In this document: positions 44,138 to 61,812 of the stretch, in pieces
Layout of the letters: every line of letters starts with the position of its first letter
How positions within the stretch are numbered: the first letter of the stretch is position 1
Source: Pseudomonadota bacterium
GTDB lineage: Bacteria > Desulfobacterota > UBA8473
Length of the DNA: 62,575 bases
Assembly: GCA_043818015.1 (NCBI GenBank)
Contig: JBDRGH010000003.1
Span: 1-62,575 of the forward strand
Direction: 5' to 3'
Program-made: the position numbers and the translations under genes
Notes under the pieces: model-generated
Told to the model about the DNA's origin: nothing
Seen by the model: only the letters and a program-made list of their open reading frames with translations
Databases searched by the model: none

Positions 44138-44193
44138 ATTACAATCCTGGCATGATTTTGTTGCATCTCATTTGCGGATCATTTTTGAACCGT

Positions 44194-44589
44194 TTACGGC
44201 AGATCGAGATCCCCGTCGTCGCGGATCTGGGAGAGCCTTATCAGCTCCTCTATGCTGCTGTCGTGCAGATAGCCCGTCTTCCGCCCTCTCGGATCCCTTT
44301 CCTGCTCCTCCCTGCCCTTGTCCTTCAGCCTCTGGAGCAAGAACCTGAACTTGTCCCTGTGGATGTTGAAGGCCTTCGACACCAGGTAGAAGCTGATCAC
44401 GTCCTCCCGCATCTTCCTCTCCTCTTCTTCCATGAACAGCCAGTCGGCTGCCTGCCTGTGCCTTCCGTGCCCCTCATCGAACTGCATATAGTCGTTCACC
44501 GTCTCCCGGAGCAGCATCCACCACAGCTGAGGAAAAAGGCGGACGTCCATCTCAAGGAAGATCTGCTTGCCTTCGAGTTCATCCGCCAT
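44194..44589 (-). CDS. hypothetical protein
   Basis: 131-aa GC-rich ORF, co-directional. Confidence 0.4.
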   Translation of the reverse strand: MADELEGKQIFLEMDVRLFPQLWWMLLRETVNDYMQFDEGHGRHRQAADWLFMEEEERKMREDVISFYLVSKAFNIHRDKFRFLLQRLKDKGREEQERDPRGRKTGYLHDSSIEELIRLSQIRDDGDLDLP

Positions 44590-44631
44590 CTATCGTGCCG
44601 TCCCGTCGACCATTTGTTCCGTCCTCTCTTT

Positions 44632-45330: not shown

Positions 45331-45537
45331 AAACTTGAGTGCTTCCTTACCTTTTTCGGCTTATCAAAAATTTTTTTCTTGCAGTCCTTACAGATTACCA
45401 TATAATAAGAATACAAGCTGACCTTGTACTGACAATTCTTACTCTCGTCATTAACAGCAAGCTTTATCTTATAAACACCAGATTTAATCCTTTTATACTT
45501 CTGGCATGCAGGACAGTAAATGACTTCCGCATCAGAG

Positions 45538-46308
45538 TTAAGATTGATTCTTTCCGCTCTTCATCTCTTTTTTACCCACATTGTTTTCCGTCAGAATCTC
45601 CAGGCTTCTCGGCCCGTGGTTCAAGGCCAGATCCACCACGCTCATGTGCGCATGAAATTCTCCAGAAGTCTTCAACTGATGCTGTCCATATGCTGGATGC
45701 TGGTAATCCTGATACGCGATCTTTATTCCCGCCTTCTCAAACTTCTTTTCCTCCAGATAGCCTTTCCCTAACGTTCCACTGAAATAGATGTCCGCCTTCT
45801 CTCTCTGACAGATCTCCAAAACCAGATCGCTCTTCGTCCCGATGAGAGGCGGATCATAAGCGGAGCTCTTCTTGATCTCAGAATCTATCCCAAGCATCTT
45901 GCCCAGATAAACGGAAGAGAACTCCAGATTGGCGTCCAAGTCCTTCCAATCGAACACACGCATCAATCTGAACATCTCCCTCATCGCATGCCCGTGTTCG
46001 GGCTTGTCCCAGTAAGGAGACTTGGAATAGCACAGGCTAATCGAGCGGAGATGCTTATCCAGCCAGTTCACCCTTTCATCCACCAGAACCTTGCTGATCT
46101 GCTGCTTGGAATCGGCTTTGGTCAAGGCAGGAATCGTCAGCCACATCTCCCTTCCGTCAGGCTGGAGGATCCTGTTGCGATTAATGAAGCTGTTCTTTTC
46201 AAACTGGACCGTATTCAGTATGACAAAAATATCTGCAACAGACATCTTATGAAAATATCCAAGCCAAGGAATATAGGCTGGCTGGTGTATGGATATTATC
46301 TTAGTCAT
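45538..46308 (-). CDS. WbqC-like family protein
   Basis: IHQPAYIPWLGYFHKM...NTVQFEKNSFINRNRI N-terminal signature. Confidence 0.75.
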   Translation of the reverse strand: MTKIISIHQPAYIPWLGYFHKMSVADIFVILNTVQFEKNSFINRNRILQPDGREMWLTIPALTKADSKQQISKVLVDERVNWLDKHLRSISLCYSKSPYWDKPEHGHAMREMFRLMRVFDWKDLDANLEFSSVYLGKMLGIDSEIKKSSAYDPPLIGTKSDLVLEICQREKADIYFSGTLGKGYLEEKKFEKAGIKIAYQDYQHPAYGQHQLKTSGEFHAHMSVVDLALNHGPRSLEILTENNVGKKEMKSGKNQS

Positions 46309-46456
46309 TTTTTATTCCTCTTTTGAATATGAACCAATTCTCCAGTTCCAAAGTCTTCAACAAAGGCCTCCTGTTTTTAGGACAGCAGCCATACTTCTTC
46401 TGATATGTGATTATTGAGTTTATCCTTCTCACTCAATTTAAAGACAATCTTTTCCG

Positions 46457-46894
46457 TCATTTAAGCAGCCCAAAGACTCTTCTTTTGGTCTGCTTTATCT
46501 CAAACCGTCCCTTTTTCTCATCGAATAACATGTCCAGCAATCCAAGATCCAAGCTCTCTGATTGGAACATGCTAACTGTTTTGTTGAAGGCCTCTTGACA
46601 CAGTTCAGGAGACATGCCCATCCAATTTATGCAGTGCAGAGCACTCAATGCTTCATAATCATGAGCATCTGGCACAAAGGAAGTCAACTTCAAGCACTTG
46701 TCTATAGTACAGATGCTGAAATAAGTGCTTTTGAACATGTTCTTCAAAGCAGTTATCACCACTTCCTTAGTAAACTCGTCCATCTTTGTTCTTCCTTCTT
46801 TTCCCCAGACACTTCGTTTGCAGAAATAATAGCAGAACAGTTGGTGTGAAAGAGGCCAGCTATAGTACAAATTCTTGCTGTCTTTATCAGCCAA
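46457..46894 (-). CDS. hypothetical protein
   Basis: 145-aa track ORF. A later in-frame start (MDEFTKEV, ATG at 46783) is equally plausible. Confidence 0.35.
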   Translation of the reverse strand: MADKDSKNLYYSWPLSHQLFCYYFCKRSVWGKEGRTKMDEFTKEVVITALKNMFKSTYFSICTIDKCLKLTSFVPDAHDYEALSALHCINWMGMSPELCQEAFNKTVSMFQSESLDLGLLDMLFDEKKGRFEIKQTKRRVFGLLK

Positions 46895-46996
46895 AATACA
46901 TCATGAGATGCCATCACTTTTACATAGGCTAAATATGCCTTTTTTATTTGCTTTCTTATGGCTTTTTTCTTTCTTTGTTTTAACCATCTGGATTTT

Positions 46997-47599
46997 TTAT
47001 CTTCTGTTTTCTTTTCCATTTCTATATAGATGCATCATAAAAAAGTTTTTAGAAGTATCGTGTCTCAGACAAATGTATGGCGTCAACAGAAAGACAAAAG
47101 ACAGTATCTTACCAGCATCGAAATGATATTCACCCTTGCCGTCAGGAATAAGGGACTCTGCACTCAGGCAGTCGAATATCAGAAGTTCTCGCGTAACCAG
47201 CCAGGCTTCTTCTATCAGTTTCAAAGCCTCTCGGAAAGGATAAAGGTATAAGACGCCATTCATGATGATAATGTCGTGCATTGCAATAGGCATAGGCCAA
47301 GTACCTTGCAGGACATTTATTTCCATCTTCTCTTTTTCGACTTTTTCAACCACTTTTTCGGAGACATCCACCCCTAGATAATCGATGCTGGCAAAATAAT
47401 CATCCAGATAATCCTTCAGATCGCAGAAGCCACAACCTATGTCAAGCACGGATTTATAGTTAAAGTCTGTGGCCTCGGAGATCATCTTGAACTTCAACTC
47501 CTGCGATTCCTTGGAGCCATAGTCCAAGGCTTGGATCGAATGGCCATGCTTATCTATTAAGTAGTCGAAAAAACACCCAACATTTTTCATATTCCGCAT
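46997..47599 (-). CDS. class I SAM-dependent methyltransferase
   Basis: Motif I VLDIGCGFCD, then YLGVDVS, and IIMNGVLYLY. Confidence 0.7.
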   Translation of the reverse strand: MRNMKNVGCFFDYLIDKHGHSIQALDYGSKESQELKFKMISEATDFNYKSVLDIGCGFCDLKDYLDDYFASIDYLGVDVSEKVVEKVEKEKMEINVLQGTWPMPIAMHDIIIMNGVLYLYPFREALKLIEEAWLVTRELLIFDCLSAESLIPDGKGEYHFDAGKILSFVFLLTPYICLRHDTSKNFFMMHLYRNGKENRR

Positions 47600-48017
47600 T
47601 CTCTGCTAAAAAGTTATGCTCCATAAAAAAATTTGCCCCTTCATAGCTATCCTCTTGTACACAAGCTTTGATTCTAACAATGCCTGGCCAAACTTTTTTT
47701 ACTTCTTCAATTCCTTGTTCTAATGCTTCAGAACCAAGCTTTCTATCTCTGTATTTCCCAAGTAAATAAATATGAACTTCGCAGAGAGCATCGTTTCTTT
47801 TCTCAAATCTGATATGGCCTATTAACTTTCTTTTATAGACGATTATGAATGGCAAACAAGAGAAGAACATTTCAGACAAACATTTTGAAAACCAATGATC
47901 ATGCTCCTCCCAAGACACTCCTTTTTGAGACAAAGAGTTCTCGATGATCTCCGGCAGGTTCCGCCACCCAAAAAGTAGCTCCCTATCTTCTTCTATTATC
48001 AGTCTGAGCTTGATCAT
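47550..48017 (-). CDS. GNAT N-acetyltransferase (PseH-like)
   Basis: LRLIIEEDRELLFGWRNLPEI...EEHDHWF N-terminus, as in PseH-type acetyltransferases. KYRDRKLGSEAL lies at the CoA-binding loop position. Confidence 0.65.
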   Translation of the reverse strand: MIKLRLIIEEDRELLFGWRNLPEIIENSLSQKGVSWEEHDHWFSKCLSEMFFSCLPFIIVYKRKLIGHIRFEKRNDALCEVHIYLLGKYRDRKLGSEALEQGIEEVKKVWPGIVRIKACVQEDSYEGANFFMEHNFLAENAEYEKCWVFFRLLNR

Positions 48018-48289
48018 CCTAACTTTACCTCTACTGGTATTGTGAAGACCATCTGCTTTCCCTGTTCTGTGAACTCTTCGGTGACTTGCGGCTTTTCCAG
48101 ACCCTCGTTAGCTGCTTTTAATATCACGGCACATTCATCGAGATTCCATCCCCTGCGATAATTCTTGACACTAAATCGATTTTCTTCTCCGACTTTTCTT
48201 GTTATCAAGATGAGAAAAGTACCTTCTTCAAGACACAACACAACATCTTTCTTTATCTCTTCCAGGATCTGGGAATTAAGCTTGTTCAT
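48014..48289 (-). CDS. hypothetical protein
   Basis: 91-aa ORF with 4-nt overlaps on both sides. Confidence 0.4.
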   Translation of the reverse strand: MNKLNSQILEEIKKDVVLCLEEGTFLILITRKVGEENRFSVKNYRRGWNLDECAVILKAANEGLEKPQVTEEFTEQGKQMVFTIPVEVKLG

Positions 48290-49209
48290 GCTGACTCCTT
48301 GTCCTTCTTGTAGAGAATCTCTTCAATATCATCTCTCATTTTACATAATTGTTTCAACTCCTCTGGATCAATACTGCATACTTGATCTGGTCCAGGAAGA
48401 GTTTTATCTAAGGTGAAATGTTTCTCAATGATTCTGGCGCCAAGAGACATAGCCACCACTGCCGCTGTTATCCCGATCGTGTGATCGGAGAAGCCTATAT
48501 ATGAATTCTCAAATATACTTTTAATCGGAGAAATTTCTAATTCTTCATACTCCCCTCCAATATTAACCTCTACTGAAGTTTTACTCTCTTTTATTTCACG
48601 CTTTGTCAAATTGATCCCTTTAAAAGTTTGTATACACTCAAAGAAATGCAATTTAGATGGTTTTACAGGATATTCGGAAATACAATATAACCAACTAATT
48701 TCCTCTTTATTAAATAAATCAATTCCTTTCTTAAAATGTAAATAATCTGGTTTGAAGTCAAATGAATATATATATCCATCACTAACAATTATAGGCTTTC
48801 CTTTAGTTATTATAGCTTTACAAAGCTCTTCATTTAAAGCATCGTCACTGGCTATCTTGTACCTGTCCACCCCAACGTCATCGAGCCAGCCCAGCCTCTC
48901 AAGATCACTCACCGATGCAAGGAAGTCAATGCCAGCCCTCTCGCATTCAGACTTTATCCAGAACACCTGCCTCCTGCCTAGCCTTGCGGCATATATGGCC
49001 TCCCATTCCAGCTTTGAAAACTTTTCAGGCTCTATAGGAGGGTCCCCGAAAACAGTCTTCGGATCGTACAGCTGGATCTTCACCGTGTCGGCCTTGCATT
49101 CCGCAGCCTTGTGGATCATGTCTCGAAGTAAGGAAGCATCACCACAGTGATTGATTCCTAATTCTGCAATTATTTCTATATGATGTTTCCTTTCCATATC
49201 CCACCTCAC
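48286..49209 (-). CDS. NeuB-family nonulosonic acid synthase (PseI/NeuB-like), no SAF domain
   Basis: IIAELGINHCGD...ADTVKIQ, KIASDD, and GFSDHTIG...GARIIEKHFTLDK motifs. There is an extra segment of about 40 aa before GFSDHT. The protein ends without the usual C-terminal SAF domain. Confidence 0.8.
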   Translation of the reverse strand: MRWDMERKHHIEIIAELGINHCGDASLLRDMIHKAAECKADTVKIQLYDPKTVFGDPPIEPEKFSKLEWEAIYAARLGRRQVFWIKSECERAGIDFLASVSDLERLGWLDDVGVDRYKIASDDALNEELCKAIITKGKPIIVSDGYIYSFDFKPDYLHFKKGIDLFNKEEISWLYCISEYPVKPSKLHFFECIQTFKGINLTKREIKESKTSVEVNIGGEYEELEISPIKSIFENSYIGFSDHTIGITAAVVAMSLGARIIEKHFTLDKTLPGPDQVCSIDPEELKQLCKMRDDIEEILYKKDKESA

Positions 49210-49556
49210 CTTACCATACCCTAATCTCGCCTATACCCTTTCAAAAGGGCCTTCTTTTTGCCATGAACACAAGCATAAATAATGTGTAAAGGAATCGTTA
49301 TAAACAGCAAGATAAAACCAAATGCAATAGCCATTATATGCATTACAATAAATAAAAAATGTCCCATCTTTATCCTTTTATTTTTTCTTTATCGGTCTGC
49401 TTAAAATTGAATCACTCCTCTTCACCTTATCGACAAGAAATTTCCTTTTCCTTATTAAGCTCTCGTGCATCTCAAAGGTAATTTCTTTTAAAGTTGCAAG
49501 TTTCTCCAAGTATCCTAAGCTAATCTTTGCTGTTTTAACCTACTCTCCCAAAAGCA

Positions 49557-49853
49557 TCAGTGCTGCTCATGGATTGAAAACACAGAATACCAGTCTCCCA
49601 GCGTACCAACAAGTAGACGCATAAGGCTATCTTTAACGTGAAGATACCCCCCAAATGCCTCTGGAGATATATGAACAAACCAGCATTGCACAGGGGTTGT
49701 TTGTGGTTCTTCCCATTGAATAAACTCTACAAGAAAAGCAAAACCCCTACGCATTTTTACAATGCCCTCACTTGCCCGACCTAATTTACCATCATAATAC
49801 ACCAACACTTTATCATTCTTTTGTGTGTCAAAATCCACCTTACTCTCCCTCAA
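49557..49853 (-). CDS. hypothetical protein
   Basis: 98-aa ORF with a 4-nt overlap with the GT2 stop. Confidence 0.4.
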   Translation of the reverse strand: MRESKVDFDTQKNDKVLVYYDGKLGRASEGIVKMRRGFAFLVEFIQWEEPQTTPVQCWFVHISPEAFGGYLHVKDSLMRLLVGTLGDWYSVFSIHEQH

Positions 49854-50626
49854 TAGATAATATCATATGTTTCAACCAGATAATACCTAAAAAGACAGAT
49901 CAGATACCAGTACAGAGGCACCTGATCCTTCCATCTCCTTACGACCTCTCTGCTCTCCTTTCTCCTTCGTCTAACCTTAGAGATGACACTCCCCTCATGC
50001 ATTCTCAGAAAGCCCAAAGGGAAAGGAATATAGCCCACTTCTGTTTCATGGGCCAGCTTGAGTAGCAGATCCCAGTCATGTGAGATAGTGAGGCGAGCAT
50101 CATATCTATACTTCTTGATCAGATCAGTCCTCACCATAACGGAGCTATTTGGAATAAAGTTCTTGAAGAGCAAAAGTCGAAAGCAGTTGCCGTTGAAAGG
50201 TTTTGACAACTGAGACCACTTTTCCTTCCTGCCATTTATCAATAATAGATCATGATAACTTATCCCGACACCCAACCACTCCATAAATTTAACCTGTCTT
50301 TCCAGCTTCTCCCTTGACCAAAAATCATCAGAGTCCAGAAAAGCAGTATATTTCCCTTTTACCAGACCAAGACCTGCATTCCTCGGAGCAACTGGAGAGC
50401 CACTATTCTTTCGCAAAGACCACAAGATCAGATTGCTGTCAAACTGTTTGCTATTTATCCATTTCTCCCAGCTTTTTATGATGTCCGGAGTCTCATCAGT
50501 AGAGGCATCGTCTATGACGATCAGCTCCCAATGCTCATATGTCTGCTTCACCACGGAATCGATAGCATCTCCTATGTATTTGGCTCCATTATATACCGGC
50601 ATTATGATACTAACTTTTGGTTTCAT
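49850..50626 (-). CDS. family 2 glycosyltransferase
   Basis: VSIIMPVYNGAKYIGDAIDSVVKQTY..WELIVIDDASTD, followed by a DSDD motif. Confidence 0.85.
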   Translation of the reverse strand: MKPKVSIIMPVYNGAKYIGDAIDSVVKQTYEHWELIVIDDASTDETPDIIKSWEKWINSKQFDSNLILWSLRKNSGSPVAPRNAGLGLVKGKYTAFLDSDDFWSREKLERQVKFMEWLGVGISYHDLLLINGRKEKWSQLSKPFNGNCFRLLLFKNFIPNSSVMVRTDLIKKYRYDARLTISHDWDLLLKLAHETEVGYIPFPLGFLRMHEGSVISKVRRRRKESREVVRRWKDQVPLYWYLICLFRYYLVETYDIIY

Positions 50627-51804
50627 TCCAACAGCTCCTTGTAGAATTTCACATACCTTTTCATTGTTCTGTCGTAGGAATAATGCTCCTCAAAGATCCG
50701 CTGGGAGTTCATGCCCATCCTCTGCCTAGATGCCTTTTTCTCGATCAGATAGTCAATGCAGTCTCTCAACTGCTTCACCTCTCCTGGCTCGACAAGAAGG
50801 CCATTCATCCAATCCACAATCTGTTCAGCCATCCCAGCCACTTTGGTCCCGACGATAGGCTTGCCGAGACTCATCGCCTGCAAGACAAGGATCGGGAAGT
50901 CCTCGTGAGCGATGGATGGCTGAACATAGATGTCGCAGGCATTGATGTAGGAATAGCCGTCCTTGACGTTCTTTCTGAAAAAGACCGGCCTTATATCAAT
51001 AGACTCCACCATGAGAGCCAGCTCTTCTTTCCCTTCTCCCACCAGCAGCAAAACCACACCATTCCCGTGCTTCTGGACCAACTCTCTGAACGCTTTCAAT
51101 AAGTAGGTCTGTCCCTTTCTCTTTTCAAACACGCCCACACAGACAATCAAGACGTCCTCTGGAAGCACTCCCAAACTTTTCCTGACTTTCTCCCTGTCCA
51201 CCAGAAGCTGGCTGTGAATGGTGTTTGGCATGACTCTGAATGCAGGAGCACGATGCCAAAAAAGCTCTTTGATTTCGCGGCTCACCGCATGAGAAGCCGA
51301 CAGCATCACATCCACCTCCTGGCTCACGAAATTGTCCATCGGCTTCTCGATCAGCCTCTGGATGAAGTTCCTCTTTTTCGGGAGATTGTTGATGAAGTAA
51401 ACCACCTTTTTCACCTTTGCCATCCTGCCTGCCAGCACAGCTGCTTGACAGCTTATCGGCCCTGGATATCCTCCGCTATTTATCACAAGAATCTCTGGTC
51501 TTATCTGCTTCAGCAGTTTATAGATCTTTATTGCATCAAAAGGCACACAAACATATTTAACCATGCGAAAAAGCTTATTCCCATAAAATCTAGAACTGAG
51601 CAATTTTAACGGAAAATAAGGGCACTCAGCACCGGCTATATTCCACCACCAAAGCATGACACGCTCAAACTCCTCTCGATAGGCAAAACTAAAAGAAATC
51701 TGAAAATTCTCCTTTATAAGAGCACTCGCAAATAGGCAAGTGAGCATTTGCTCAGAGCCACCACAGCGAAGATTGTCTGTATAATAGTGAATTTTATTTT
51801 TCAT
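50623..51804 (-). CDS. GT-B glycosyltransferase (Glycos_transf_1, GT4-type)
   Basis: C-terminal EDFPILVLQAMSLGKPIVGTKVAGMAEQIVDWMNGLLVEPGE (E-x7-E region). Confidence 0.85.
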   Translation of the reverse strand: MKNKIHYYTDNLRCGGSEQMLTCLFASALIKENFQISFSFAYREEFERVMLWWWNIAGAECPYFPLKLLSSRFYGNKLFRMVKYVCVPFDAIKIYKLLKQIRPEILVINSGGYPGPISCQAAVLAGRMAKVKKVVYFINNLPKKRNFIQRLIEKPMDNFVSQEVDVMLSASHAVSREIKELFWHRAPAFRVMPNTIHSQLLVDREKVRKSLGVLPEDVLIVCVGVFEKRKGQTYLLKAFRELVQKHGNGVVLLLVGEGKEELALMVESIDIRPVFFRKNVKDGYSYINACDIYVQPSIAHEDFPILVLQAMSLGKPIVGTKVAGMAEQIVDWMNGLLVEPGEVKQLRDCIDYLIEKKASRQRMGMNSQRIFEEHYSYDRTMKRYVKFYKELLE

Positions 51805-51891
51805 CCTTTATATAATCCCTGCCTTGCCTTGCCTTATCCAGCCAAGCTCACACTTTATTCTAGCAGTAAGCCCAATTTAGCCAATGGATAC

Positions 51892-54231
51892 TCAATGGTT
51901 GATCTTATTCCAAGCATTCAAATCCTCCACCATCTCTTTCTTTAAACCTATAAGTTCCTCATCTGAAAAATCAGTGAAGTTAACAAGCAAGCTTTCGCCC
52001 TGCTCGTTGTCAGACAGCCTTAAACAGAGGTCCTCCTCTTCATCCAGCCTCCTTTCAGAAGAGCCGAAATAACCTTGCATCCTCATCCACTTCCACAAAG
52101 GAGTGCCTGGGTATGGCGTCAGAAAGAAGATGGCATGGGGAGGCAGATTGTGCTGCTTGCAGAAGGCAACTGTCTCTTGAAGCGTCTCTCGGGTCTCTCC
52201 TGGAGTTCCTATGATAAACGTTGCCTCACAATCTCCAAATATGTCCTGGGACATCTCAACTGCTTCGTGACACTTTTCCACAGTTGTCCTCTTATTCAAT
52301 CTGTCAAGTATCTTTTGACTTCCTGATTCAACTCCATACCCGACAAGAACGCAACCAGCATCTTTACAAAGTCCTAATATCTTTCTGCCCACAGTATCAA
52401 CCCTAGCACCACATTCCCAGCTAACTATCTTGTTCATTCCGGAGAACACCATCAACTCACAAAACTCTTTCACATTCTTTTTATTGGTTATGAAAATGTC
52501 GTCCCCCATCAGAATGTGCTCAACTCTATAATTTTCATACAGATAGACAATCTCATTAAACAGCGACTGAGCATCCCTATATCTATACTTAGTTCCCATA
52601 TAGTCGTGATAGCAGAAAAAACAATTATGGACAAGAATATCATTAGCAAAAAACCAATCATACCCAGGAATTGACATGCAATAAACATCCTCTTTCTCCG
52701 AAAGTTTTTCAATTGATTTAACCTTATGATTACTTTGCTTAATCTGCCCTTGCTTTCTTTTTATCCAGCCAGCTCTATAGTTTGCTTTATGCTCCTCAGT
52801 ACGTTTCTTTCCTAAATTACTTTTTCCTACTTTTTCAGCCCATTCTTTAGTTATTATTCTGCCTTTAAGTTTATTTGAGATCTTCTTTTTAACCTCTACA
52901 GAACGTTCTATTCCATATAAAGGACTCTCCTCTCCTCTTTTACCATAGTTAGGATTGCTCTCTCCTAATTTACTAAGTCTATAATTTTCTTTTTGTTCAG
53001 GAGTTCTTTTTTTACCCAAATTCCTCTCTTTAGCTCTTTCAGCCCTTTCCTGTGGAGATAGCTTAAAGACAGGATTTTTCTCTCCTTTCCACTTCTCACT
53101 AAACCCAGAATGCTGTAGTATATGCTCTTTATGGTTTGAACACAGCTTTAAATTAGTAGGGAGGTAGTTCTTCTTATTTTCATCAATATGATGAATTTCT
53201 TCTCCCTTCCTAAGCTCTCTCCCAAGAAGCCTTTCCATCATAGTTCTGGCTCCTCGTAATTGGCCTGGGTATTTGCAAGCCACCACACTCTGGCCTGGCT
53301 GAAGATTTTGAGCTTCAACTTCCCATTCTTTCCTTGGCTGAAATTGGTTTTTATATTGCAAAACCATAAATCTATGGTCTGAAGTGCAATCAATATGACT
53401 CCCATCAGTAAAATGAACTCTTACTAGCTCTGCATCTTTTCTTGTTTTAAAAATAGCTTTAGGCTTAATATAAACTATTCTCTTTGTTTTTGGATTACGA
53501 GTAAGGATCAAAGGAGTCTGCCCTACCAAATCTTCTATTTTCTTCTTCCCATCTGGAGTATCAAGAAGAGTATCTCCTCTCAAACAATTGAAAGGACAGC
53601 CCCTGCTACTGAGTATGTTCATGGACTTTGGCACTTTTTCTGCCTTTCCATCAGTCCACTTTGCCTTGTTGATTGTGCTTCCCACCGGATTGTTGGCATA
53701 GATCTCTGTCGGAAAGAGATCATATGCCGGCAATGGCAGTTTGTTGATATCTTTAATTGGGTATCTTTTGTCTGTTGAAATAATTTCTTCGCCCCTTCTA
53801 TAGACAATCCCCGGAGTCATGAACCTTGTTTTCTTTTGTTCCAATTCGTAAAATAAATCTAAAGCAGTCACCTCTCCCTCTCCAATGACACAAACGTCAG
53901 CTCCTGCCTTTCGGAGCATGATCTCAGGAATACTGCTCCCAAGGACGCCGCCAACTATGATAGGAATGTCCGTATTATATCCTTTAATCTCCTTAATAAG
54001 CCATTTCACATAAGCATAGTTTGTAATCAGTCCTGTGACGCCCACAGCATCATATTCCAGAGAATAGAGCTTAGAAATTACTTGATCCTCTGAATATCTA
54101 TGAGCATTGATATCCAATATTTCGACATCATGATCCTTCTCCAGTACCTGGGCTATGTATCCCAGGCCCTGCGGAAAGCAGTTGGGAGGAGCCCATGTCC
54201 TAACCGGAGGATTAATGAGTAGTATTTTCAT
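51892..54231 (-). CDS. B12-binding domain radical SAM protein interrupted by an intein
   Basis: N-terminal LLINPP...GLGYIAQVLEKDHDVEILD and IIVGG. The cluster motif is split as GCPFN|C...VHN|CFFC. The extein is 458 aa and the intein is 321 aa. Confidence 0.85.
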   Translation of the reverse strand: MKILLINPPVRTWAPPNCFPQGLGYIAQVLEKDHDVEILDINAHRYSEDQVISKLYSLEYDAVGVTGLITNYAYVKWLIKEIKGYNTDIPIIVGGVLGSSIPEIMLRKAGADVCVIGEGEVTALDLFYELEQKKTRFMTPGIVYRRGEEIISTDKRYPIKDINKLPLPAYDLFPTEIYANNPVGSTINKAKWTDGKAEKVPKSMNILSSRGCPFNCLRGDTLLDTPDGKKKIEDLVGQTPLILTRNPKTKRIVYIKPKAIFKTRKDAELVRVHFTDGSHIDCTSDHRFMVLQYKNQFQPRKEWEVEAQNLQPGQSVVACKYPGQLRGARTMMERLLGRELRKGEEIHHIDENKKNYLPTNLKLCSNHKEHILQHSGFSEKWKGEKNPVFKLSPQERAERAKERNLGKKRTPEQKENYRLSKLGESNPNYGKRGEESPLYGIERSVEVKKKISNKLKGRIITKEWAEKVGKSNLGKKRTEEHKANYRAGWIKRKQGQIKQSNHKVKSIEKLSEKEDVYCMSIPGYDWFFANDILVHNCFFCYHDYMGTKYRYRDAQSLFNEIVYLYENYRVEHILMGDDIFITNKKNVKEFCELMVFSGMNKIVSWECGARVDTVGRKILGLCKDAGCVLVGYGVESGSQKILDRLNKRTTVEKCHEAVEMSQDIFGDCEATFIIGTPGETRETLQETVAFCKQHNLPPHAIFFLTPYPGTPLWKWMRMQGYFGSSERRLDEEEDLCLRLSDNEQGESLLVNFTDFSDEELIGLKKEMVEDLNAWNKINH
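52624..53586 (-). mobile_element. intein with HNH homing-endonuclease and NUMOD3-like repeats
   Basis: Residues 216-536. Cys1 (TGT 53586-53584), block B TSDH, terminal VHN (AAT 52626-52624) and a +1 Cys. HNH motif EEIHHIDENKKNYLPTNLKLCSNHKEHILQH. Repeated GKKRTxEQK-type motifs. Confidence 0.8.
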
Positions 54232-54644
54232 CCTATAAATGGCCTATTTTTAACCCATTGCCTATTAGCTTCCTTTTGAACAATTAAACAGACTTGCTTC
54301 TTCCCTTCTTCACTTTCTAGATATTCCTTTGTGATCCTTTTTATATCTTTCGCTCCTTGCTTACTAAAGTCCGTTTTTATTATTACATCGCTCTTTGCGT
54401 TTTCTAGTTGCTTTTCAGCCCTCTCATACACCTCCTCAGAGACATACGGAAGCTCCGAGAATCCACTGAGGGAATAGCCGATGAGCATGGCAAACTGCTC
54501 CCGATCCTCATCCGAAAAAGGCATATTTACAATTTGGTTCAAGTCATATGAACCGGCATTCAGCAAAAATCTGACAATTGCGTTCTCCTTAAAACGTGCA
54601 ATTCCCTCATCATCAGTAAAAACAGGTTGTATTGGTCTCATCAC
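54228..54644 (-). CDS. hypothetical protein
   Basis: 138-aa ORF with 4-nt overlaps on both sides (ATGA at 54228-54231, checked). Confidence 0.45.
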   Translation of the reverse strand: MMRPIQPVFTDDEGIARFKENAIVRFLLNAGSYDLNQIVNMPFSDEDREQFAMLIGYSLSGFSELPYVSEEVYERAEKQLENAKSDVIIKTDFSKQGAKDIKRITKEYLESEEGKKQVCLIVQKEANRQWVKNRPFIG

Positions 54645-54922
54645 AGATCTCCCATCTTGTTTTTGCCATCAATGTAGAGCATCTCGGGCCTCTCCACCGC
54701 TGGCAGCCTCATTGTAATCTTCAGCCGCTTCATCATCTTCCAGACTCCCATCTGGGTGATTCCCACCAGATTGGCTATGTCATAGACGCTACGGCCGCCA
54801 TCGTACAGGTCTTGGAACATTCCGGTCACCGTGCTGTATCCCATCTTGTCCGCCTTCTCCTTCCACCTGAGATAGACCTTAGGATACTTGAAAAGCCTTG
54901 CTTCTTGCTCTGACGTCATCAT
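54641..54922 (-). CDS. HTH DNA-binding protein
   Basis: 93 aa. SVYDIANLVGITQMGVWKMMKRL is HTH-like. Confidence 0.45.
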   Translation of the reverse strand: MMTSEQEARLFKYPKVYLRWKEKADKMGYSTVTGMFQDLYDGGRSVYDIANLVGITQMGVWKMMKRLKITMRLPAVERPEMLYIDGKNKMGDL

Positions 54923-54971
54923 CTCCTCTTATTTAGATTATAACTTATTTTTATCGATTTTTAAAACATTT

Positions 54972-55748
54972 TTACTTCTTTGCCTGCCTCCTCAGCAAGG
55001 ACTGAAAATCAGAAGAGCCGAAGTCTGGCAGCAAAGTGGTCCTACACGGCTGATAGCTGATAAATGTCTCTGCGTACTCAAAGCCATACTGCCTGCCCCA
55101 CTCTTTCTCCATGGAATTGAGCCGCGACCACACCACGTCCTTGGTGTTGTACTGACTCGGCATCGATATGAACGCCACTGCCTTCTTCTCTATCACTTTC
55201 GTAATGTCCACGACCACGTCTGGAGGCACCACGTTCCTACCCAACTTCACCATGTTCGGATGGAACTGGTAGCCATAGAAGAACACGTTCGAGACTCGAC
55301 AAGGCTCAAAACCCTCCATCTCGACATACCTTCCAGCAGCCACCGAAGCCTCCATGCTCTGCTGTCCTATGTAGGAATGGTCTGGATGATGGCTTTCTGC
55401 CGGATGATGGGTGACAAGAACGTCTGGTCGAACCTTGCTGATGATTTCTGCTATTGGCTTTCTGTGCAGGATTCCAGGATCAAAAAAGATTCCATCATCA
55501 AAGCCGAGAAAAGATCTGTTCTCTTTTTTCACATCGAGGACGTCCAATGCATCCTGGCACTCATCTATTTTAGCTCTCTCAAACTCACCTATGTTTGACA
55601 TCTGCTCTTTTGATAATGGATGAGAAAAAACACCTAAAGTCACTGCCATAATAAAGACTTCATCTCCAGCTTCGATGTGGTTGGCTATGGTGCCAGCAGC
55701 CAGGTCGATCAAATCAGCCGGATGTGCACCCACAAATAAAAGTTTCAT
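54972..55748 (-). CDS. PIG-L/LmbE family deacetylase
   Basis: LFVGAHPADLIDLAAG and VTHHPAESHHPDH motifs. Confidence 0.8.
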   Translation of the reverse strand: MKLLFVGAHPADLIDLAAGTIANHIEAGDEVFIMAVTLGVFSHPLSKEQMSNIGEFERAKIDECQDALDVLDVKKENRSFLGFDDGIFFDPGILHRKPIAEIISKVRPDVLVTHHPAESHHPDHSYIGQQSMEASVAAGRYVEMEGFEPCRVSNVFFYGYQFHPNMVKLGRNVVPPDVVVDITKVIEKKAVAFISMPSQYNTKDVVWSRLNSMEKEWGRQYGFEYAETFISYQPCRTTLLPDFGSSDFQSLLRRQAKK

Positions 55749-55825
55749 TCTATCTCTCCTCTATTAAAAATTATTATTAATTTATGTCTCCTTTTTGAAT
55801 TTCATTTTCATCATGGTTTATTTCT

Positions 55826-56521
55826 TTATTTTATCCCTCCTTTTTCTAAAAGTTTCCTCGCAAAAAATTCTGCCAATTCAAAATCAACCTCTGTGTTTAT
55901 GTCGATTGATCGTTCATATGGCATCTGTAAGACTCCCAATTCATTGAGATACCAGGTCTTCTGCTCCAGAAAAGCACCCACCTTCGCCCAGTACATAGAG
56001 CCATTTCCGACAACTCTCAGGCCTACAGCCTCTATCAGCTGCTCTTCCCTAAGATCGAATAACTTCATACTCTCTGGCTTCCACATATTCATTTTGTTCT
56101 TATAGAGAGCCTGCCACCATGGCTGTACGAATTTGGTAACTCCCATCACCCCTTCAAACCCCATCCTCAGCATGTGCCTGTATGCCATCTCGATGTCCGC
56201 AGCCGTCCTCATGGGAGCGGTCACATACAAGCAGCAAAAGTTGTCGAACTTTCCCAAAACTTCTTTACCCAAGATGTGCTCACATACCTGAACAAGGGTG
56301 CATCTGTTCTTTGCCATAGAGTTGTGCCACCAAAGGACATTGCTCTCTGTATACATTTCCCATTCTTCGATATTAGAATAAAGCAAGATGACATCGAAGC
56401 AGCCGCTCTGTTTGGCAGCCTCGATGGTCCATTCCACGATCGGCCTGCCCAAAAAATCCCTCGTGTTCTTATTTAGACACCTGCTGCTGTATCTCTTGGC
56501 CGGTATGATCGCCAGGTTCAT
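55826..56521 (-). CDS. acylneuraminate cytidylyltransferase family (CMP-nonulosonic acid synthetase, PseF/NeuA-like)
   Basis: N-terminal LAIIPAKRYSSRCLNKNTRDFLGRPIVEWTIEAA signature. Confidence 0.85.
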   Translation of the reverse strand: MNLAIIPAKRYSSRCLNKNTRDFLGRPIVEWTIEAAKQSGCFDVILLYSNIEEWEMYTESNVLWWHNSMAKNRCTLVQVCEHILGKEVLGKFDNFCCLYVTAPMRTAADIEMAYRHMLRMGFEGVMGVTKFVQPWWQALYKNKMNMWKPESMKLFDLREEQLIEAVGLRVVGNGSMYWAKVGAFLEQKTWYLNELGVLQMPYERSIDINTEVDFELAEFFARKLLEKGGIK

Positions 56522-56552
56522 AATTACCCTCCTCTAATGGATAGAATGTTAA

Positions 56553-56915
56553 CTATTGAATTGACTGTAATCGCTTAAGCTCTGCCTCAGCTTTCCCGAT
56601 CTCTAAAAGCGTTTTATTGAGTTTCTCCAGCAGACCTGGATCGTCCGGATATTTAGCCAGCATCAGCCTGATCTCCATCTCCATCTTTTGCCAATAATAA
56701 AGCTTGTCGTAGGTCCTCTGAATCTGCGTCTGCTTCTGGATACCCTGGATCGCTTTGGTTGTCTTGTCCATGCACAGCTCGTGGTACTCCTTAGTTACAA
56801 AGTGAGCATCTACCGCCCAGATGCCAGCCAGCAAAGCAAGGACAATAATCATTCCACTCATAACTTTCTTCATCAAATTATTTTTTTGCCCCTTTGTCAT
56901 CTCTTTTCCTCCCAA
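56553..56915 (-). CDS. membrane-anchored coiled-coil protein
   Basis: 120 aa with one TM helix (MSGMIIVLALLAGIWAV), then helical charged sequence. Confidence 0.4.
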   Translation of the reverse strand: MGGKEMTKGQKNNLMKKVMSGMIIVLALLAGIWAVDAHFVTKEYHELCMDKTTKAIQGIQKQTQIQRTYDKLYYWQKMEMEIRLMLAKYPDDPGLLEKLNKTLLEIGKAEAELKRLQSIQ

Positions 56916-57946
56916 ATTAAAGACTCGTTTGGATTCTCAAGCTCCTGAGCAAGAAAATCATGAGGTGTATAATCTTCAAAAAGCCGTCCACTCTGTAAAA
57001 AGCATTTCAGCTTAAGCACTCCCTCTTCGACTGTAGAAAAAGATTGCAGACAGTTGCCAAAAAGATCCTTGACTCCCACCTTCAGAGGGATGCTCTTCTC
57101 ATGATACAGGCACAAGACCGGCTTTCCTGCTCCTATTGCCTCAAAGAAGGCTGTCGATCCGACATCGACCACTATCGCATCAGCCTCTCTAAAATATTTC
57201 TGCTTACTTCTCTTCACCCATCTCATCCTCTTCATGTCCGACGTTTCCGATTCAAAATGCCTCACCATCAGATTTGGCTTCTCTCGATCCAGCCGTGGAT
57301 CATGGCACCAGGTAACTCTGCATCCGGAGGAGACGAACGTCTCCCAAAATGCCAAATTGTACACATGCCTCTCCTCGTTGCTGAGCAAGCATCCAGAAAC
57401 GTGCACACGGTCAGAAGGATGGTTGAACATCGGAATATACAAGAGCTTCTTAATCCTCTGTCCAGGAGAAAACGTGGTTTTTTTTGGCAGATGTCTGTTG
57501 AACTTCCTTATCTCTGCCCTCCCTCCAAATTCACGGAAATACCTCCTGTTGAATTCATTGGGGATATATAAATACTCATAATCATCGACGAGCCCTTTGC
57601 GATCCGAATGATGGAAAATGTCGCAGCCGTGCATGACATAGCTCACTGGAATGCCAAACTTTTGAGCAGCCAGGACAGCGGCATTTATCTCTATATTCGA
57701 TTCCCTTTCTATCACCAGAAAATCAATCCTCTTTTTCTCTCTAAAATATCTCACCCACTTCCCATAATGTCCATAAAAGCGAGGCCAATACTCCTTCTCC
57801 ATCTTGACAAGGTCTTCGAAGTCGAGCATCTGCCAGCCGTCCTTAAGATCCACCAGCTTGAAGATGGACCAATGCCCCCTCAGAAAAGCTCTCTTAGCAT
57901 AGAATCGTAAGTGCCTACTTGCGGGAAGGAAGAGTATCCTGTTCAT
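56897..57946 (-). CDS. GT-B-like glycosyltransferase/hydrolase-like protein, function unknown
   Basis: I prefer the start at MNRILFLP, whose ATG overlaps the PseB-like TGA (ATGA at 57943-57946, checked). C-terminal ADAIVVDVGSTAFFEAIGAGKPVLCL resembles GT-B nucleotide-sugar-binding regions (PseG-, capsule- or Maf-type). Confidence 0.45.
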   Translation of the reverse strand: MNRILFLPASRHLRFYAKRAFLRGHWSIFKLVDLKDGWQMLDFEDLVKMEKEYWPRFYGHYGKWVRYFREKKRIDFLVIERESNIEINAAVLAAQKFGIPVSYVMHGCDIFHHSDRKGLVDDYEYLYIPNEFNRRYFREFGGRAEIRKFNRHLPKKTTFSPGQRIKKLLYIPMFNHPSDRVHVSGCLLSNEERHVYNLAFWETFVSSGCRVTWCHDPRLDREKPNLMVRHFESETSDMKRMRWVKRSKQKYFREADAIVVDVGSTAFFEAIGAGKPVLCLYHEKSIPLKVGVKDLFGNCLQSFSTVEEGVLKLKCFLQSGRLFEDYTPHDFLAQELENPNESLIWEEKR

Positions 57947-58929
57947 ATCAGCTTCCTTATCATCTTTCTCAATTCTCCAGCTGTCACTTGCCATTCATTG
58001 GTCTGCGAAGTGTAAGACTGTCCAATCGTCACTCCAGAAGGTTTAAACCTATCTCCGTCAAAAAATTTCAGGCCTGGCAAGATCATGAAGAAATCTCCCA
58101 TGTCAAAAGCCCTTTCGACTTCACTGGGAGAGACAAGAACTTCATGCAACTTTTCTCCAGGCCTGATCCCTGTGTAATCGATCCGATAACCCTTTGTTTC
58201 GTCACTAGTTGCAAGTGCCAAAGAGAGAACCGGACTGCTGGACATCTTCGGGACAAAGATCTCTCCTCCTTCCATCTCCTCGGCATGATTCAGAACAAAC
58301 TTAACTGCATCTGTAATAGTTATCCAGAACCGTGTCATCCTACTGTCCGTCACTCTGAAATAACCCTCTTCTTTCTGTTTCAGAAATATCGGCAACACAC
58401 TCCCTCTGCTGCCCAACACATTCCCGTATCTTACTACGGAAAACTTTGGCCCCAAAGTATTGGCAGCGACGAACAACTTTTCGGCAGTCAGTTTAGTGGC
58501 TCCATAAAGATTAATGGGATCAACAGCCTTATCCGAAGAAAGAGCAATCACCCTTTCAATCTTTCTTTCAACGGCCACTTCGATAATGTTCTGTGCTCCA
58601 AGTACATTTGTCTTCACCGCTTCACTTGGATTATACTCGCAAATTGGAATCTGCTTCATGGCTGCCGCATGAATGACGAGGTCCATACCTTTAAAAGCCA
58701 GAGACAACTTCGATTTATCCCTGACGTCGCCGATGAAATATCGCATTATTGACTTCTCTTCATGGGTATCCGGCCATCGTTTCTGCATCTCATACTGTTT
58801 ATCCTCACCCCTACTCAAGATGGCTATCCTTCTCGGCCCCATGGTCTGCAAGACTTTGGCACACTCCTGGCCAAAAGTACCAGTGCCTCCCGTAATCAAG
58901 ATACTCTTGTCCTTGTAAAAGCTATCCAT
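57943..58929 (-). CDS. pseB: UDP-N-acetylglucosamine 4,6-dehydratase (PseB/FlaA1/CapD-like)
   Basis: ILITGGTGTFGQ, FIGDVRD, IHAAAMKQIPICEYNPSEAVKTNVLGAQN, LSSDKAVDPINLYGATKL and RYGNVLGSRGSV give a near-canonical Polysacc_synt_2 signature. Confidence 0.9.
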   Translation of the reverse strand: MDSFYKDKSILITGGTGTFGQECAKVLQTMGPRRIAILSRGEDKQYEMQKRWPDTHEEKSIMRYFIGDVRDKSKLSLAFKGMDLVIHAAAMKQIPICEYNPSEAVKTNVLGAQNIIEVAVERKIERVIALSSDKAVDPINLYGATKLTAEKLFVAANTLGPKFSVVRYGNVLGSRGSVLPIFLKQKEEGYFRVTDSRMTRFWITITDAVKFVLNHAEEMEGGEIFVPKMSSSPVLSLALATSDETKGYRIDYTGIRPGEKLHEVLVSPSEVERAFDMGDFFMILPGLKFFDGDRFKPSGVTIGQSYTSQTNEWQVTAGELRKMIRKLI

Positions 58930-59459
58930 CTTTCTCCCTTCCTTTTCTTATAACATCATTCGGCTCTTTATACTCCAGAATATTAAGATGTCCGTTATGG
59001 AATCTTTCAGAACTTTCCAAAAATTTAATTTGATCCTCAAAATAGAATATTCTATTTCTTATCAGCATTACATAGTCTATCTCATGAGACTTAAATAGCA
59101 GCAATCTAATACTGCATATATACTAGAGTAGCAATTAGAGATATCAGAAAGCAAATAGCAAAAACGAGGATAAAAACTAAAAAACTTTCTTCTTTTATTT
59201 TTATTTCAAATTTTCTTTCCTGATAGCCTTTTTCTACGTCCAAGTATTTGAATAAGATCAGCTCCTAATAGTTCAATATTATATGATATTACTACTCTTT
59301 CAATATCAGAAATAGAAAAAGACATTTTCTCAAGCACCTCTAAAATTTTTCCATTTGCTTGCATAAACACAATATCTTTAACTCATTCCGCTATCTCATC
59401 GGCTACAACTTTTTTCTCCGAAAAAGTAAGTGGCTGCCAATTAAATGCCCCCAAAAAAA

Positions 59460-60308
59460 CTACCTCCTTTCGCACACAACCATATACCCAGCCCATCTGT
59501 TTAGAGGACTGAATAAGGTCAGAACCTTCCGCAAGCCCATCCAGAAAGCCATGGTAAAAGGGAGAAGTGCTTTCTCGATCCTTGCCTTCTCTCCTTCCCA
59601 ATCCGACGTCCTGTGGTTGTACCATCTGCCCTTTCTCTGGGCAACAAAAGCCGCCAGGTTCCATCTGCTCTTAATCCAATAAAGCTCCTTGATCTCAAAG
59701 CCATATCTTCTCAACAGCTCTCGCATATTGAATGGATCGATCCAGCACACATGATCCGGATTCACAAGCTCATCAGACATCAGCCAGGCATAGACGAAAT
59801 TGTCCATGTAAAACGGGGTGGGTGTTGTCAGGATCAATTTTCCTTTTACCTTCAATAAATAAATACAATTGCATAAAAAGAATCTAATACTATCTAAATG
59901 TTCGATCAGATCAGCTGCTATAATCAGATCAAAAGACTCCCTTTCAACAGACTTTTTCGATCCATACCACAAAGGATATGTCAGATCTCCTCTAAAGCAA
60001 TTTGGAAGATTCGTGCTTTCCTTATAATTCAAATCTATCCCAATAAGCTTCTTTGAAACTTTTGCCAATTCCTCATGCAGAGGACTCTTCCCATATCCTT
60101 CCAACGTGTGGTTCAAGAAGCCAGCATCCAGCACCGCCTTTCCCTCCGCAAGAGCAACGATGGCATCCACCTTGTCGACTGCTTTCGCCTTCCTGATCTG
60201 CCTTAAAAAATCCTGCCTGTCCTGAGATAGCTCCATTTCCTCATCCGTCCTTTCATGTTTCTGATAAGTGAAAACCAAAGATTCGACCAGAGCCTTCCCA
60301 CGAACCAC
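59460..60308 (-). CDS. SAM-dependent methyltransferase-like protein
   Basis: VLDAGF..., LIGIDL, FDLIIAADLIEHLD and LKVKGKLILTTP patterns. The start is uncertain (alternative ATG at 60236). Confidence 0.6.
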   Translation of the reverse strand: MVRGKALVESLVFTYQKHERTDEEMELSQDRQDFLRQIRKAKAVDKVDAIVALAEGKAVLDAGFLNHTLEGYGKSPLHEELAKVSKKLIGIDLNYKESTNLPNCFRGDLTYPLWYGSKKSVERESFDLIIAADLIEHLDSIRFFLCNCIYLLKVKGKLILTTPTPFYMDNFVYAWLMSDELVNPDHVCWIDPFNMRELLRRYGFEIKELYWIKSRWNLAAFVAQRKGRWYNHRTSDWEGEKARIEKALLPFTMAFWMGLRKVLTLFSPLNRWAGYMVVCERR

Positions 60309-61702
60309 AGAATTGACTGGTTCTCTGCTCCAAGCAGATTGATCTTCGCTCTATAATACAGCTTGGTCTTGTTCGGCTGAACTGGCCTTTCAACGTCTCC
60401 AAAAAGATTCTTGATCCCGAGCCTTCTTGCCTCTCTGACGAATCGAAGAAAACGACTTTCTCTTATAGAATAGTTATTGTCTCTGGTGCTCCACAGCAGC
60501 GGGGTCTCTCCCAACTCAATCCCATACTTCTCTGGATGGCTGTATCCTTCACTCCCAGGAAAAAATCCACACAGGTTGAGCGCCGGATTGATCTGATAGA
60601 TGAAGTCCCTGTTGTCTCTTAGGAACTGCAAGGTCTCTTCAAAATCCTGTTCAGTCTCTCCCGGCAGACCAAACATGAAGTTGAGATTGACCTTGATTCC
60701 AGCAGCCCAAGCTTCTTTCACAATATCTGGAATATCCGTTCCATCGGCACTGTTCTTGCCTATGCTCTTCAGCAGCCTTAGTACGGGTGTTTCCAGTCCA
60801 TAGCCTATAAATGTGCAACCGGCATCCCTCATCTTGTTATACAAGGGATAGTGCATCTCCTTCCTGATCGTGGCATTGCCCATACTCCATTTCACCCTAC
60901 TACCCAGACCACTTTTTATCATCAGATCGCAAAAGTTGTTCAGCTCCTTAATGTTGCCATTGCTCACTGAGTCGTGAAAATGGAAGAAAAACACCTTTGA
61001 ATGCTGTGATAATTGATAAACCACTTCACCAAAAACTCTGGCTCCAGATCTATTTCTATAGAATCCTTCGTGCAATCCCCTCTCAGAGCAGAAGATGCAC
61101 TTGTTGATGCAACCTCTACTAAACCACAATGGCAGAGAGCCCGAATAATCGTACTTCCGTAAATCGAAATCGGAATAGTCTGGAAATGGAAGCTTGTCAA
61201 GCTTGACAAGATCATATTTAGAAGAAAGAAGGGACTCTCCTTCAGCACTATAGAAACCCTTTATTTCAGAAAAACTCTTTTTAACCTCAATGCCTTCCTG
61301 CTCAAACTCCCATATCTGTGGACCACCCAGGTAGATATCAGCGACTCCCTTCAGTTCCTTCACCAGCAAAGAGGTGAACAGAGAAGACGAGTTCTGGACG
61401 GTGATCCAGATCTCTTTTGGCTTCCACTCTGCAATCCTCTTCCTGTACGTCATTATGAAAAAATAAAAATCCCTGTAAAAATCCAGGACGTCTTTCTGAT
61501 TCTCGCAATGATTGTATCCCTCAGCAAGCCGCCAATACTTCCTGTATCTCCTACCTGCAAACTGATACAGCTCAATATTAAGGTCAAGACATTTTGTCTC
61601 CAGACCTACCTCGTTGGCTACTGCCTTCAGAGAAGCCAGTCCCAGAGGAGGAGTAGTTGTGCCCCAGAATGGCGGCTGTATAAATAAAACATCTAAAGGC
61701 AT
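60203..61702 (-). CDS. B12-binding domain radical SAM protein
   Basis: VLFIQPP...PPLGLASLKAVANEVG N-domain and FSRGCINKCIFCSE (CX3CX2C). Confidence 0.85.
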   Translation of the reverse strand: MPLDVLFIQPPFWGTTTPPLGLASLKAVANEVGLETKCLDLNIELYQFAGRRYRKYWRLAEGYNHCENQKDVLDFYRDFYFFIMTYRKRIAEWKPKEIWITVQNSSSLFTSLLVKELKGVADIYLGGPQIWEFEQEGIEVKKSFSEIKGFYSAEGESLLSSKYDLVKLDKLPFPDYSDFDLRKYDYSGSLPLWFSRGCINKCIFCSERGLHEGFYRNRSGARVFGEVVYQLSQHSKVFFFHFHDSVSNGNIKELNNFCDLMIKSGLGSRVKWSMGNATIRKEMHYPLYNKMRDAGCTFIGYGLETPVLRLLKSIGKNSADGTDIPDIVKEAWAAGIKVNLNFMFGLPGETEQDFEETLQFLRDNRDFIYQINPALNLCGFFPGSEGYSHPEKYGIELGETPLLWSTRDNNYSIRESRFLRFVREARRLGIKNLFGDVERPVQPNKTKLYYRAKINLLGAENQSILWFVGRLWSNLWFSLIRNMKGRMRKWSYLRTGRIF

Positions 61703-61812
61703 GGTAACCCCCTAATATTTTCCTCACTTTCTACCATATTAAGAAGACTTTTCTATGAAACTACATCCCTACCTTACCACACCAAACCTGACCGTACCGC
61801 ACCGGACCATAA

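Follow-up and report, generated by a model that had tools for sequence, protein, structure and literature searches.

The window, by which we mean the entire stretch of DNA analysed here (contig JBDRGH010000003.1, positions 1..62575), is a tailed-phage genome or a large fragment of one with nearly all of its genes on the minus strand, and it was deposited under the label of a 'Pseudomonadota bacterium' metagenome-assembled genome (MAG). Among these genes is one coding for a 779-amino-acid (aa) B12-binding radical SAM (rSAM) protein, whose start codon region shares 4 nucleotides (nt) with the upstream open reading frame (ORF), and whose public record is named 'MAG: cobalamin-dependent protein [Pseudomonadota bacterium]'. 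A 321-aa segment of this protein is a genuine intein, with exact boundaries inside the CX3CX2C motif that furnishes the cysteine ligands of the rSAM iron-sulfur (Fe-S) cluster. The parts of the precursor are listed in Table 1 along with two paralogues that are free of the insert.

Table 1. The intein-bearing rSAM precursor, the elements of its intein, and two rSAM paralogues in the window (pLDDT, predicted local distance difference test; B:7 and the like denote block and position)
Feature	Coordinates	Strand	Basis and remarks
Precursor gene, 779-aa B12-binding rSAM protein with intein	51892..54231	-	ORF, Pfam
N-extein, residues 1-215	53587..54231	-	B12-binding domain and start of rSAM core; terminal RGCPFN
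Intein, 321 aa, protein residues 216-536	52624..53586	-	Codons, Pfam, AlphaFold2 model
Hint N-terminal half, intein residues 1-106	53269..53586	-	Block A CLRGDTLL; pLDDT 89-97
Block B IDCTSDHRF with Thr B:7 and His B:10	53368-53394	-	Sequence motif
HNH nuclease core EEIHHIDENKKNYLPTNLKLCSNHKEHILQH, intein residues 129-159	53110..53202	-	HNH_3 E=3.9e-5, motif residues
NUMOD3-type repeats LGKKRTPEQK..., GKRGEESPLYG, LGKKRTEEHK...	52768..53019	-	Predicted helical, lower confidence
Hint C-terminal half, intein residues 283-321	52624..52740	-	Block F DVYCMSIPGYDWFFA, block G NDILVHN; pLDDT 84-96
C-extein, residues 537-779 and stop codon	51892..52623	-	Remainder of rSAM barrel
Intein-free B12-binding rSAM paralogue	39032..40438	-	31% identical to extein; site DNA 26/48 nt versus home site
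Intein-free rSAM paralogue with SRGCINKCIFCS	60203..61702	-	25% identical to extein; site DNA 24/48 nt versus home site

By its domains the host protein, which we take to be a phage enzyme of sugar modification, is a B12-binding rSAM enzyme: Pfam recovers on the 779-aa sequence an N-terminal B12-binding domain (PF02310, residues 17-124, E=1.4e-20) and a Radical_SAM domain (PF04055, residues 535-690, E=1.2e-14), with the CX3CX2C motif present in the core after in-silico splicing. No NCBIfam equivalog model matches the spliced host protein at its cut-off; the NCBIfam BchE model aligns with residues 3-396 of the spliced protein as one unbroken stretch running over the junction. On the unspliced sequence, the Pfam Intein_splicing model spans residues 230-536 (E=1.7e-19), and the isolated 321-aa segment is detected by the same model (E=1.7e-20) as well as by NCBIfam TIGR01445 (intein_Nterm), at 38.4 bits where 24.5 would suffice. 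The solved inteins gp41-1, Ssp DnaB, DnaE and NrdJ-1 give weak but specific matches, which cover the first ~75 and the last ~40 residues of the intein.

Both junctions can be read to the codon. The N-terminal junction, SSRGCPFN/CLRGDTLLDTPDG (the intein beginning with CLRGDTLL), falls between Asn215 (AAT, 53589-53587) and Cys216, which is Cys1 of the intein (TGT, 53586-53584). The C-terminal junction, NDILVHN/CFFCYHDY, comprises His535 (CAT, 52629-52627), Asn536, i.e. Asn321 of the intein (AAT, 52626-52624), and the +1 residue Cys537 (TGT, 52621-52623), which is the second ligand of the cluster. The first cluster cysteine, C212 (53596-53598), stands at position -4 relative to the intein, and the third, Cys540 (52612-52614), lies downstream of the second junction. 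Deletion of residues 216-536 yields a 458-aa protein in which the motif reads GCPFNCFFC, i.e. CX3CX2C, and the expected peptide across the spliced junction is ...SSRGCPFNCFFCYHDYMGTK. The catalytic set is complete, with Cys1, Thr B:7 and His B:10 (within the TSDH of block B, T283-S-D-H286 in protein numbering), His G:6, Asn G:7 and Cys+1, and the reading frame is open through all 963 nt of the intein. Among 77 aligned relatives inserted at the same site, which are considered below, Cys1, the block B Thr, the terminal Asn and the +1 Cys are each found in 77/77 and the block B His in 76/77, with G:6 being His in 58 and Lys in 17. The first-pass annotation, prepared from the letters alone, had proposed an intein at residues 216-536 inside the CX3CX2C motif of a B12-binding rSAM enzyme, and the codons, the Pfam matches and the predicted fold bear this out at a level far above chance: the codons of Cys1, Asn536 and Cys537 were all re-derived at the positions it had given, the Cys1, the TSDH of block B and the terminal HN followed by Cys that it named are all present, and its identification of the +1 nucleophile with the second cysteine ligand of the cluster is upheld by the restored motif and the alignments.

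Two other accounts of the segment were rejected at this point. It is not an assembly artefact, because the junction keeps the frame to the exact codon and independent samples show the same architecture; nor is it a bacterial intein-like (BIL) domain, given that Cys1, the terminal HN and Cys+1 are all present. The intein is the only one of its kind in the window, inasmuch as a hidden Markov model (HMM) built from the intein family matches the precursor ORF alone and Pfam finds no Hint domain on the other large ORFs.

An AlphaFold2 model of the intein, built from a 16-row alignment, has a mean pLDDT of 82, with values of ~84-97 over the two Hint halves and 54-92 over the central region containing the nuclease and the NUMOD elements. 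A Foldseek search of the PDB with this model returned only inteins and Hint domains, the top match being the NpuDnaB mini-intein with a TM score of 0.87 (target-normalised). The alignment spans residues 1-321, and therefore the nuclease is an insertion within the Hint fold.

The inserted region had been read in the first-pass annotation as an internal HNH motif accompanied by several NUMOD3-like repeats, and both are present. The HNH string occupies protein residues 344-374 and the GKKRT repeats residues 405-440 and 473-488. We call the nuclease HNH on the conservation of its motif, because its HNH_3 score falls just below the Pfam gathering score: His132, His133, Asn145, His155 and His159 (intein numbering) correspond to near-invariant columns of the family alignment and all are intact here. 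The HNH_3 domain is detected in 45/66 same-site relatives at E<=1e-3, the best at 6.5e-10. With the nuclease region taken by itself, NUMOD3 scores 23.7 bits in 3 stretches, above its cut-off of 20.4, and in the full protein it is sub-threshold; the closest word-index matches of this region are NUMOD3/GIY-YIG homing endonucleases. Since NUMOD3 is present in only 3/66 same-site relatives, the 321-aa size of this intein reflects a NUMOD3 extension peculiar to a small subgroup that includes P0287, P0291 and a few others.

Homologues of the extein show what the gene looks like when the intein is absent. The best 120 database matches to the extein include 119 proteins, 362-477 aa long, that have the B12-binding and Radical_SAM domains and lack the intein domain (PF14890), the remaining one being the query's own record. 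The closest exteins, at 75-59% identity, have no intein, and the nearest of these, P0002 (75%), reads SRGCPFNC/FFCYHDYMG contiguously over the insertion site (alignment A2). The contig that carries P0002, L002, is syntenic with the window, both showing a PIG-L gene, small ORFs and a 140-aa ORF followed by the rSAM gene. Its DNA aligns with positions 54912-53582 and 52626-51892 of the window, the gap corresponding exactly to the intein; 75/90 nt around the site are identical, and the empty site itself reads CCGAAGTCAATGAATATTCTTAGTAGCAGAGGCTGTCCTTTCAAT/TGCTTCTTCTGTTATCACGATTATATGGG. The first-pass annotation had pointed to the rSAM genes at 39032..40438 and 60203..61702 as intein-free paralogues, which they are, with flanks that align contiguously. 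It had also stated that homologues retaining the 321-aa segment as a conserved domain would refute it, and 119 of the 120 best extein matches lack the insert and have contiguous flanks; the intein-less allele that it sought in related phages is the one on the syntenic contig L002.

The wider distribution was surveyed by running HMMER exhaustively over 1.84 billion cluster representatives (50% identity) with the intein as query, which yielded 2420 matches at E<=1e-3, 79 of them at E<=1e-30; junctions were extracted from the top 149. About 95 of these 149 representatives are rSAM proteins in which a related intein occupies the same position, sharing the junction pattern ..RGCPxx/C[LIV]xGDT ... 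VLV[HK]N/CxFC... This settles a matter that the first-pass annotation had left aside, namely whether the insertion site has been catalogued: public metagenomic and viral data hold a great many inteins at this site, which is apparently also covered by the NCBIfam model NF038136. The intein is thus one member of a large, mostly viral family at this motif, a clean example of it rather than an element of a new type. In a set of 66 same-site representatives, Radical_SAM is found in 63 and the B12-binding domain in 61, and the inteins range in size from 270-330 aa at full length down to mini-inteins of 140-166 aa. A word-index protein search with the intein alone proved insensitive (14 matches, mostly NUMOD3 endonucleases), and the family is seen by the exhaustive search. 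Related inteins also occupy neighbouring points of the same motif: before the first Cys in P0219 (G/CPFSCAYC), before the third in P0247 (CPYKCTF/C), before both the first and the second in P0211, which has two inteins, and after the second Cys in P0192, where the +1 residue is Ser.

The family is concentrated on viral contigs. A pattern scan of IMG/VR returned 106 relatives, with the same-site intein in 27 of the 77 loci fetched, i.e. on at least 27 viral contigs, and the same scan of 185,579 species genomes returned only 23 loci, all from MAGs, 5 of them with the same-site intein; 3 of those 5 contigs are also viral in IMG/VR. We observed that L010/L012 are identical to L053/L033, and L014 to L059; these contigs, of 139, 88 and 46 kb, are assigned to archaeon, Patescibacteria and Paceibacterota bins in GTDB and are classed as viral in IMG/VR, and they are likely to be viral contigs mis-binned into MAGs. 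The phage contigs L005, L006 and L007 carry intein-bearing rSAM genes in clusters with NeuB, CTP_transf_3, DegT, PIG-L and WbqC genes, and L006 and L007 code for an SU10-type portal and capsid. A tblastn search of plasmids gave no match to the intein, and one of GenBank phages gave only distant HNH inteins in other genes. In the limited library of literature that was searched, no paper on inteins in the rSAM motif was found except reviews of the redox trap of the Pyrococcus abyssi MoaA intein, so that the rSAM-site family is apparently undescribed; papers on Campylobacter phage IBB_35, Methanothermobacter, Borgs and Asgard viruses came up and were set aside as irrelevant to rSAM-motif inteins.

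The closest inteins reside in distant exteins, with 63% intein versus 38% extein identity for P0287, 58% versus 27.5% for P0286 and 54% versus 26% for P0135, and therefore horizontal homing is indicated. The intein also differs from the exteins in G+C content at third codon positions (0.28 versus 0.46). This contrast in identity, the contrast in composition, the empty site and the mini-inteins together form the usual mark of homing with later degeneration, and the element is probably an active HNH/NUMOD3 homing intein. Mini-inteins at the same site are expected from a cycle of homing and subsequent loss of the nuclease, and that nuclease could plausibly recognise the conserved DNA that encodes the cluster loop.

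We infer the splicing, the activity and target of the nuclease, and the need for splicing before the cluster is loaded, along the following lines. The precursor would be translated with a split cluster loop, C212-P-F-N and C537-F-F-C540 being held apart by the intein. An N-S acyl shift by Cys1 at the Asn215-Cys216 bond would be followed by transfer of the thioester to Cys+1 (C537), cyclisation of Asn321 would release the intein, and an S-N shift would then produce GCPFN-CFFC, a normal CX3CX2C able to bind a [4Fe-4S] cluster. As the second ligand of this cluster doubles as the +1 nucleophile, the activity of the enzyme should depend on splicing, and the suggestion of the first-pass annotation that the enzyme would stay cluster-less until spliced is a reasonable one. 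The free 321-aa intein, with its HNH core and NUMOD3 repeats, could then nick or cut the motif-encoding DNA of intein-less alleles during co-infection, and recombinational repair would copy the intein into the cut allele.

In our judgement it is highly likely that the segment is a mobile class-1-type intein with a homing endonuclease, lodged in a gene of the nonulosonic-acid/glycan cluster of a tailed phage. Certain features do, nevertheless, weigh against this interpretation. Position 4 of block F is a Cys (Cys518, 52678-52680) in place of the Asp that is typical of class 1, though not obligatory, and that usually helps to coordinate the class-1 steps; moreover, grafting a Cys at F:4 together with F65W and Cys1Ala into the class-1 intein gp41-1 led mainly to C-terminal cleavage (PMC7664689). 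The HNH_3 (PF13392) match, at residues 330-366, scores 21.1-23.6 bits against the gathering score of 24.8. The other rSAM sites in the window match the home site at just 24-26/48 nt, which bears on the range of targets of the nuclease. Finally, as the host gene is an accessory one, selection for efficient splicing is weaker than it is in replication genes. The F:4 residue is the only unusual feature of the intein. Among inteins overall just one residue is more common than Cys at this position (PMC4031507), and in the same-site family Cys is found in 66/77 aligned sequences, in 69/95 by regular expression and in 32/32 genomic loci, whereas the ribonucleotide reductase (RNR)-site relatives in the same match list have Asp in 13/13 scorable cases. 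It may simply be a trait of the clade, or it may be functional amid Cys-4, Cys1, Cys F:4, Cys+1 and Cys+4. On the latter supposition splicing would be conditional: in the unspliced protein these cysteines would be engaged in a disulfide, or as ligands of a metal or an Fe-S cluster, and so gate, by redox state or by metal, the maturation of an oxygen-labile enzyme, or else Cys F:4 would act as the branch point in a class-3-like route, and such inteins would be more than passive parasites. There are precedents for both variants, in that a disulfide between Cys-3 and Cys1 blocks the P. abyssi MoaA rSAM intein until it is reduced (PMC3922620, PMC10663303), and Cys F:4 is the nucleophile of class 3 inteins (PMC4031507). 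The existence of the family members P0293, P0221 and P0228, which lack Cys1, and of which P0293 retains Cys F:4, is likewise in keeping with conditional splicing. However, Cys1 is present in 77/77 aligned relatives, so that the canonical first step is available, and the F:4 Cys could be a single inheritance in one clade, because the sequences are non-independent. Class 3 inteins are defined by the WCT triplet (Trp B:12, Cys F:4, Thr G:5) and by the absence of Cys1 or Ser1 (PMC7664689, PMC4031507), and we rejected this assignment for the present intein, in which Cys1 is present, B:12 is Phe288 and G:5 is Val534, there being neither the Trp nor the Thr of the triplet; the family as a whole has Phe at B:12 in 73/77 and Val at G:5 in 73/77, and the class-3-like route thus lacks its signature. 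On balance, conditional splicing appears improbable to us.

The contrary proposition, that this is a decayed or domesticated Hint-HNH domain which is no longer excised, making the gene a pseudogene or a permanent fusion, we regard as very improbable. It could appeal to the non-essential host gene, to the departure from Asp at F:4 and the sub-threshold HNH_3 score, and to degenerate members of the family, which have Pro1, or Ser or Glu at G:6. Yet the frame runs uninterrupted through the entire insert, the splice-junction residues and the His and Asn positions of the HNH core are intact, the insert splits a cofactor-binding loop that is useless otherwise, and the distribution is sporadic and not fixed in any lineage. 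The degenerate members P0293, P0221 and P0228, in which Pro replaces Cys1 and G:6 is Ser or Glu, may themselves be copies in decay, or they may follow a splicing route that needs no N-terminal nucleophile.

The surroundings of the precursor gene are those of a phage with a large cluster of sugar genes. Phage genes in the window (e.g. 6545..10684, 12551..14989, 35541..36614, 37560..38996 and 40435..42216) include those for a central tail fibre, tape-measure, head-morphogenesis, portal and terminase proteins, and a nonulosonic-acid/glycan biosynthesis cluster is distributed over about 36611..37606, 45538..46308 and 48286..62575, with genes for NeuB, CTP_transf_3, PIG-L, WbqC, Polysacc_synt_2 and other epimerases, GT1 and GT2 domains and methyltransferases. 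A protein with a Wzy_C (O-antigen ligase-like) domain is encoded among the structural genes at 24486..26438. Similar glycan clusters were observed, with rSAM orthologues that either have the intein or lack it, on the phage contigs L001, L002, L005, L006 and L007. There are four rSAM genes in the window, and the contig end truncates the fourth, at 61813..62575: its frame is open to base 62575 and it matches only positions 61-165 of the Radical_SAM profile, so that its CX3CX2C region, with any intein there, is out of sight. The B12-binding rSAM gene at 39032..40438 is situated between the portal and terminase genes, an odd place for a metabolic gene, and its top NCBIfam match is the Sden_1168 P-methyltransferase family (289 bits, below the family cut-off).

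These observations have several consequences. For annotation, a public 'cobalamin-dependent protein' of a MAG proves to be a phage rSAM gene with an unannotated intein. The window thereby provides an entry to a sizeable, mostly viral intein family whose +1 nucleophiles are the three cysteines that bind the cluster in rSAM enzymes, and whose hosts are accessory glycan genes rather than the usual genes of replication and nucleotide metabolism. With up to five cysteines at the junction of an anoxic, Fe-S-dependent enzyme, these inteins offer a convenient natural system in which to study redox- or metal-gated splicing, and the same-site mini-inteins of 140-166 aa are possible Cys+1 splicing tools.

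Among known systems, the P. abyssi MoaA intein resembles the present one in residing in an oxygen-labile Fe-S enzyme of the rSAM superfamily and in having an N-extein cysteine close to Cys1 (Cys-3 in MoaA, Cys-4 here). It differs in being archaeal, chromosomal and of the MoaA family; the disulfide trap is demonstrated for MoaA (PMC3922620, PMC10663303), and it is speculative here. Class 3 inteins, such as that of mycobacteriophage Bethlehem DnaB, share the Cys at F:4 and a proposed phage origin (PMC4031507), but they lack Cys1 or Ser1 and have Trp B:12 and Thr G:5, where the present intein has Cys1, Phe and Val.

A closer counterpart is modelled by NCBIfam NF038136, 'intein-containing Rv2578c family radical SAM protein', which likewise describes intein-bearing rSAM proteins. 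The present intein aligns with positions 76-334 of this model, and its relatives place the RGCPxx of the N-extein at ~62-75 and the +1 Cys at 335; judging solely from these profile-alignment coordinates, the NF038136 intein is very probably inserted at the same CX3/C position. Its host, unlike ours, is Rv2578c/SplB-like and without a B12 domain, and the precursor was rejected as a member of NF038136, which it matches at 26.5 bits over the intein part only against a cut-off of 700 (the scores obtained here being 26-34 bits).

The phage HNH inteins in genes for RNR, thymidylate synthase and dCTP deaminase share with the present intein a homologous architecture of Hint and HNH_3 domains. P0124, a thymidylate-synthase-like protein (L003/L004, 6001-7614), has an unannotated intein that is 30% identical over 100% of the length of the present one, and its +1 Cys aligns with the catalytic cysteine, that of the ThyA PCH motif. 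RNR-site relatives (RRGANMG../C...FVHN/CDHPD) are among the top intein matches. We also observed unannotated homologous HNH inteins in gp069 of the cultured Aphanizomenon phage CL131, a 555-aa 'dCTP deaminase' (L110, 949-2616), and in a Campylobacter phage RNR. The nucleotide-metabolism inteins differ from the rSAM-site group in their host genes and in having Asp at F:4, whereas inteins of the latter group have Cys at that position, and the residue they target is a metal-ligand cysteine rather than a catalytic nucleophile.

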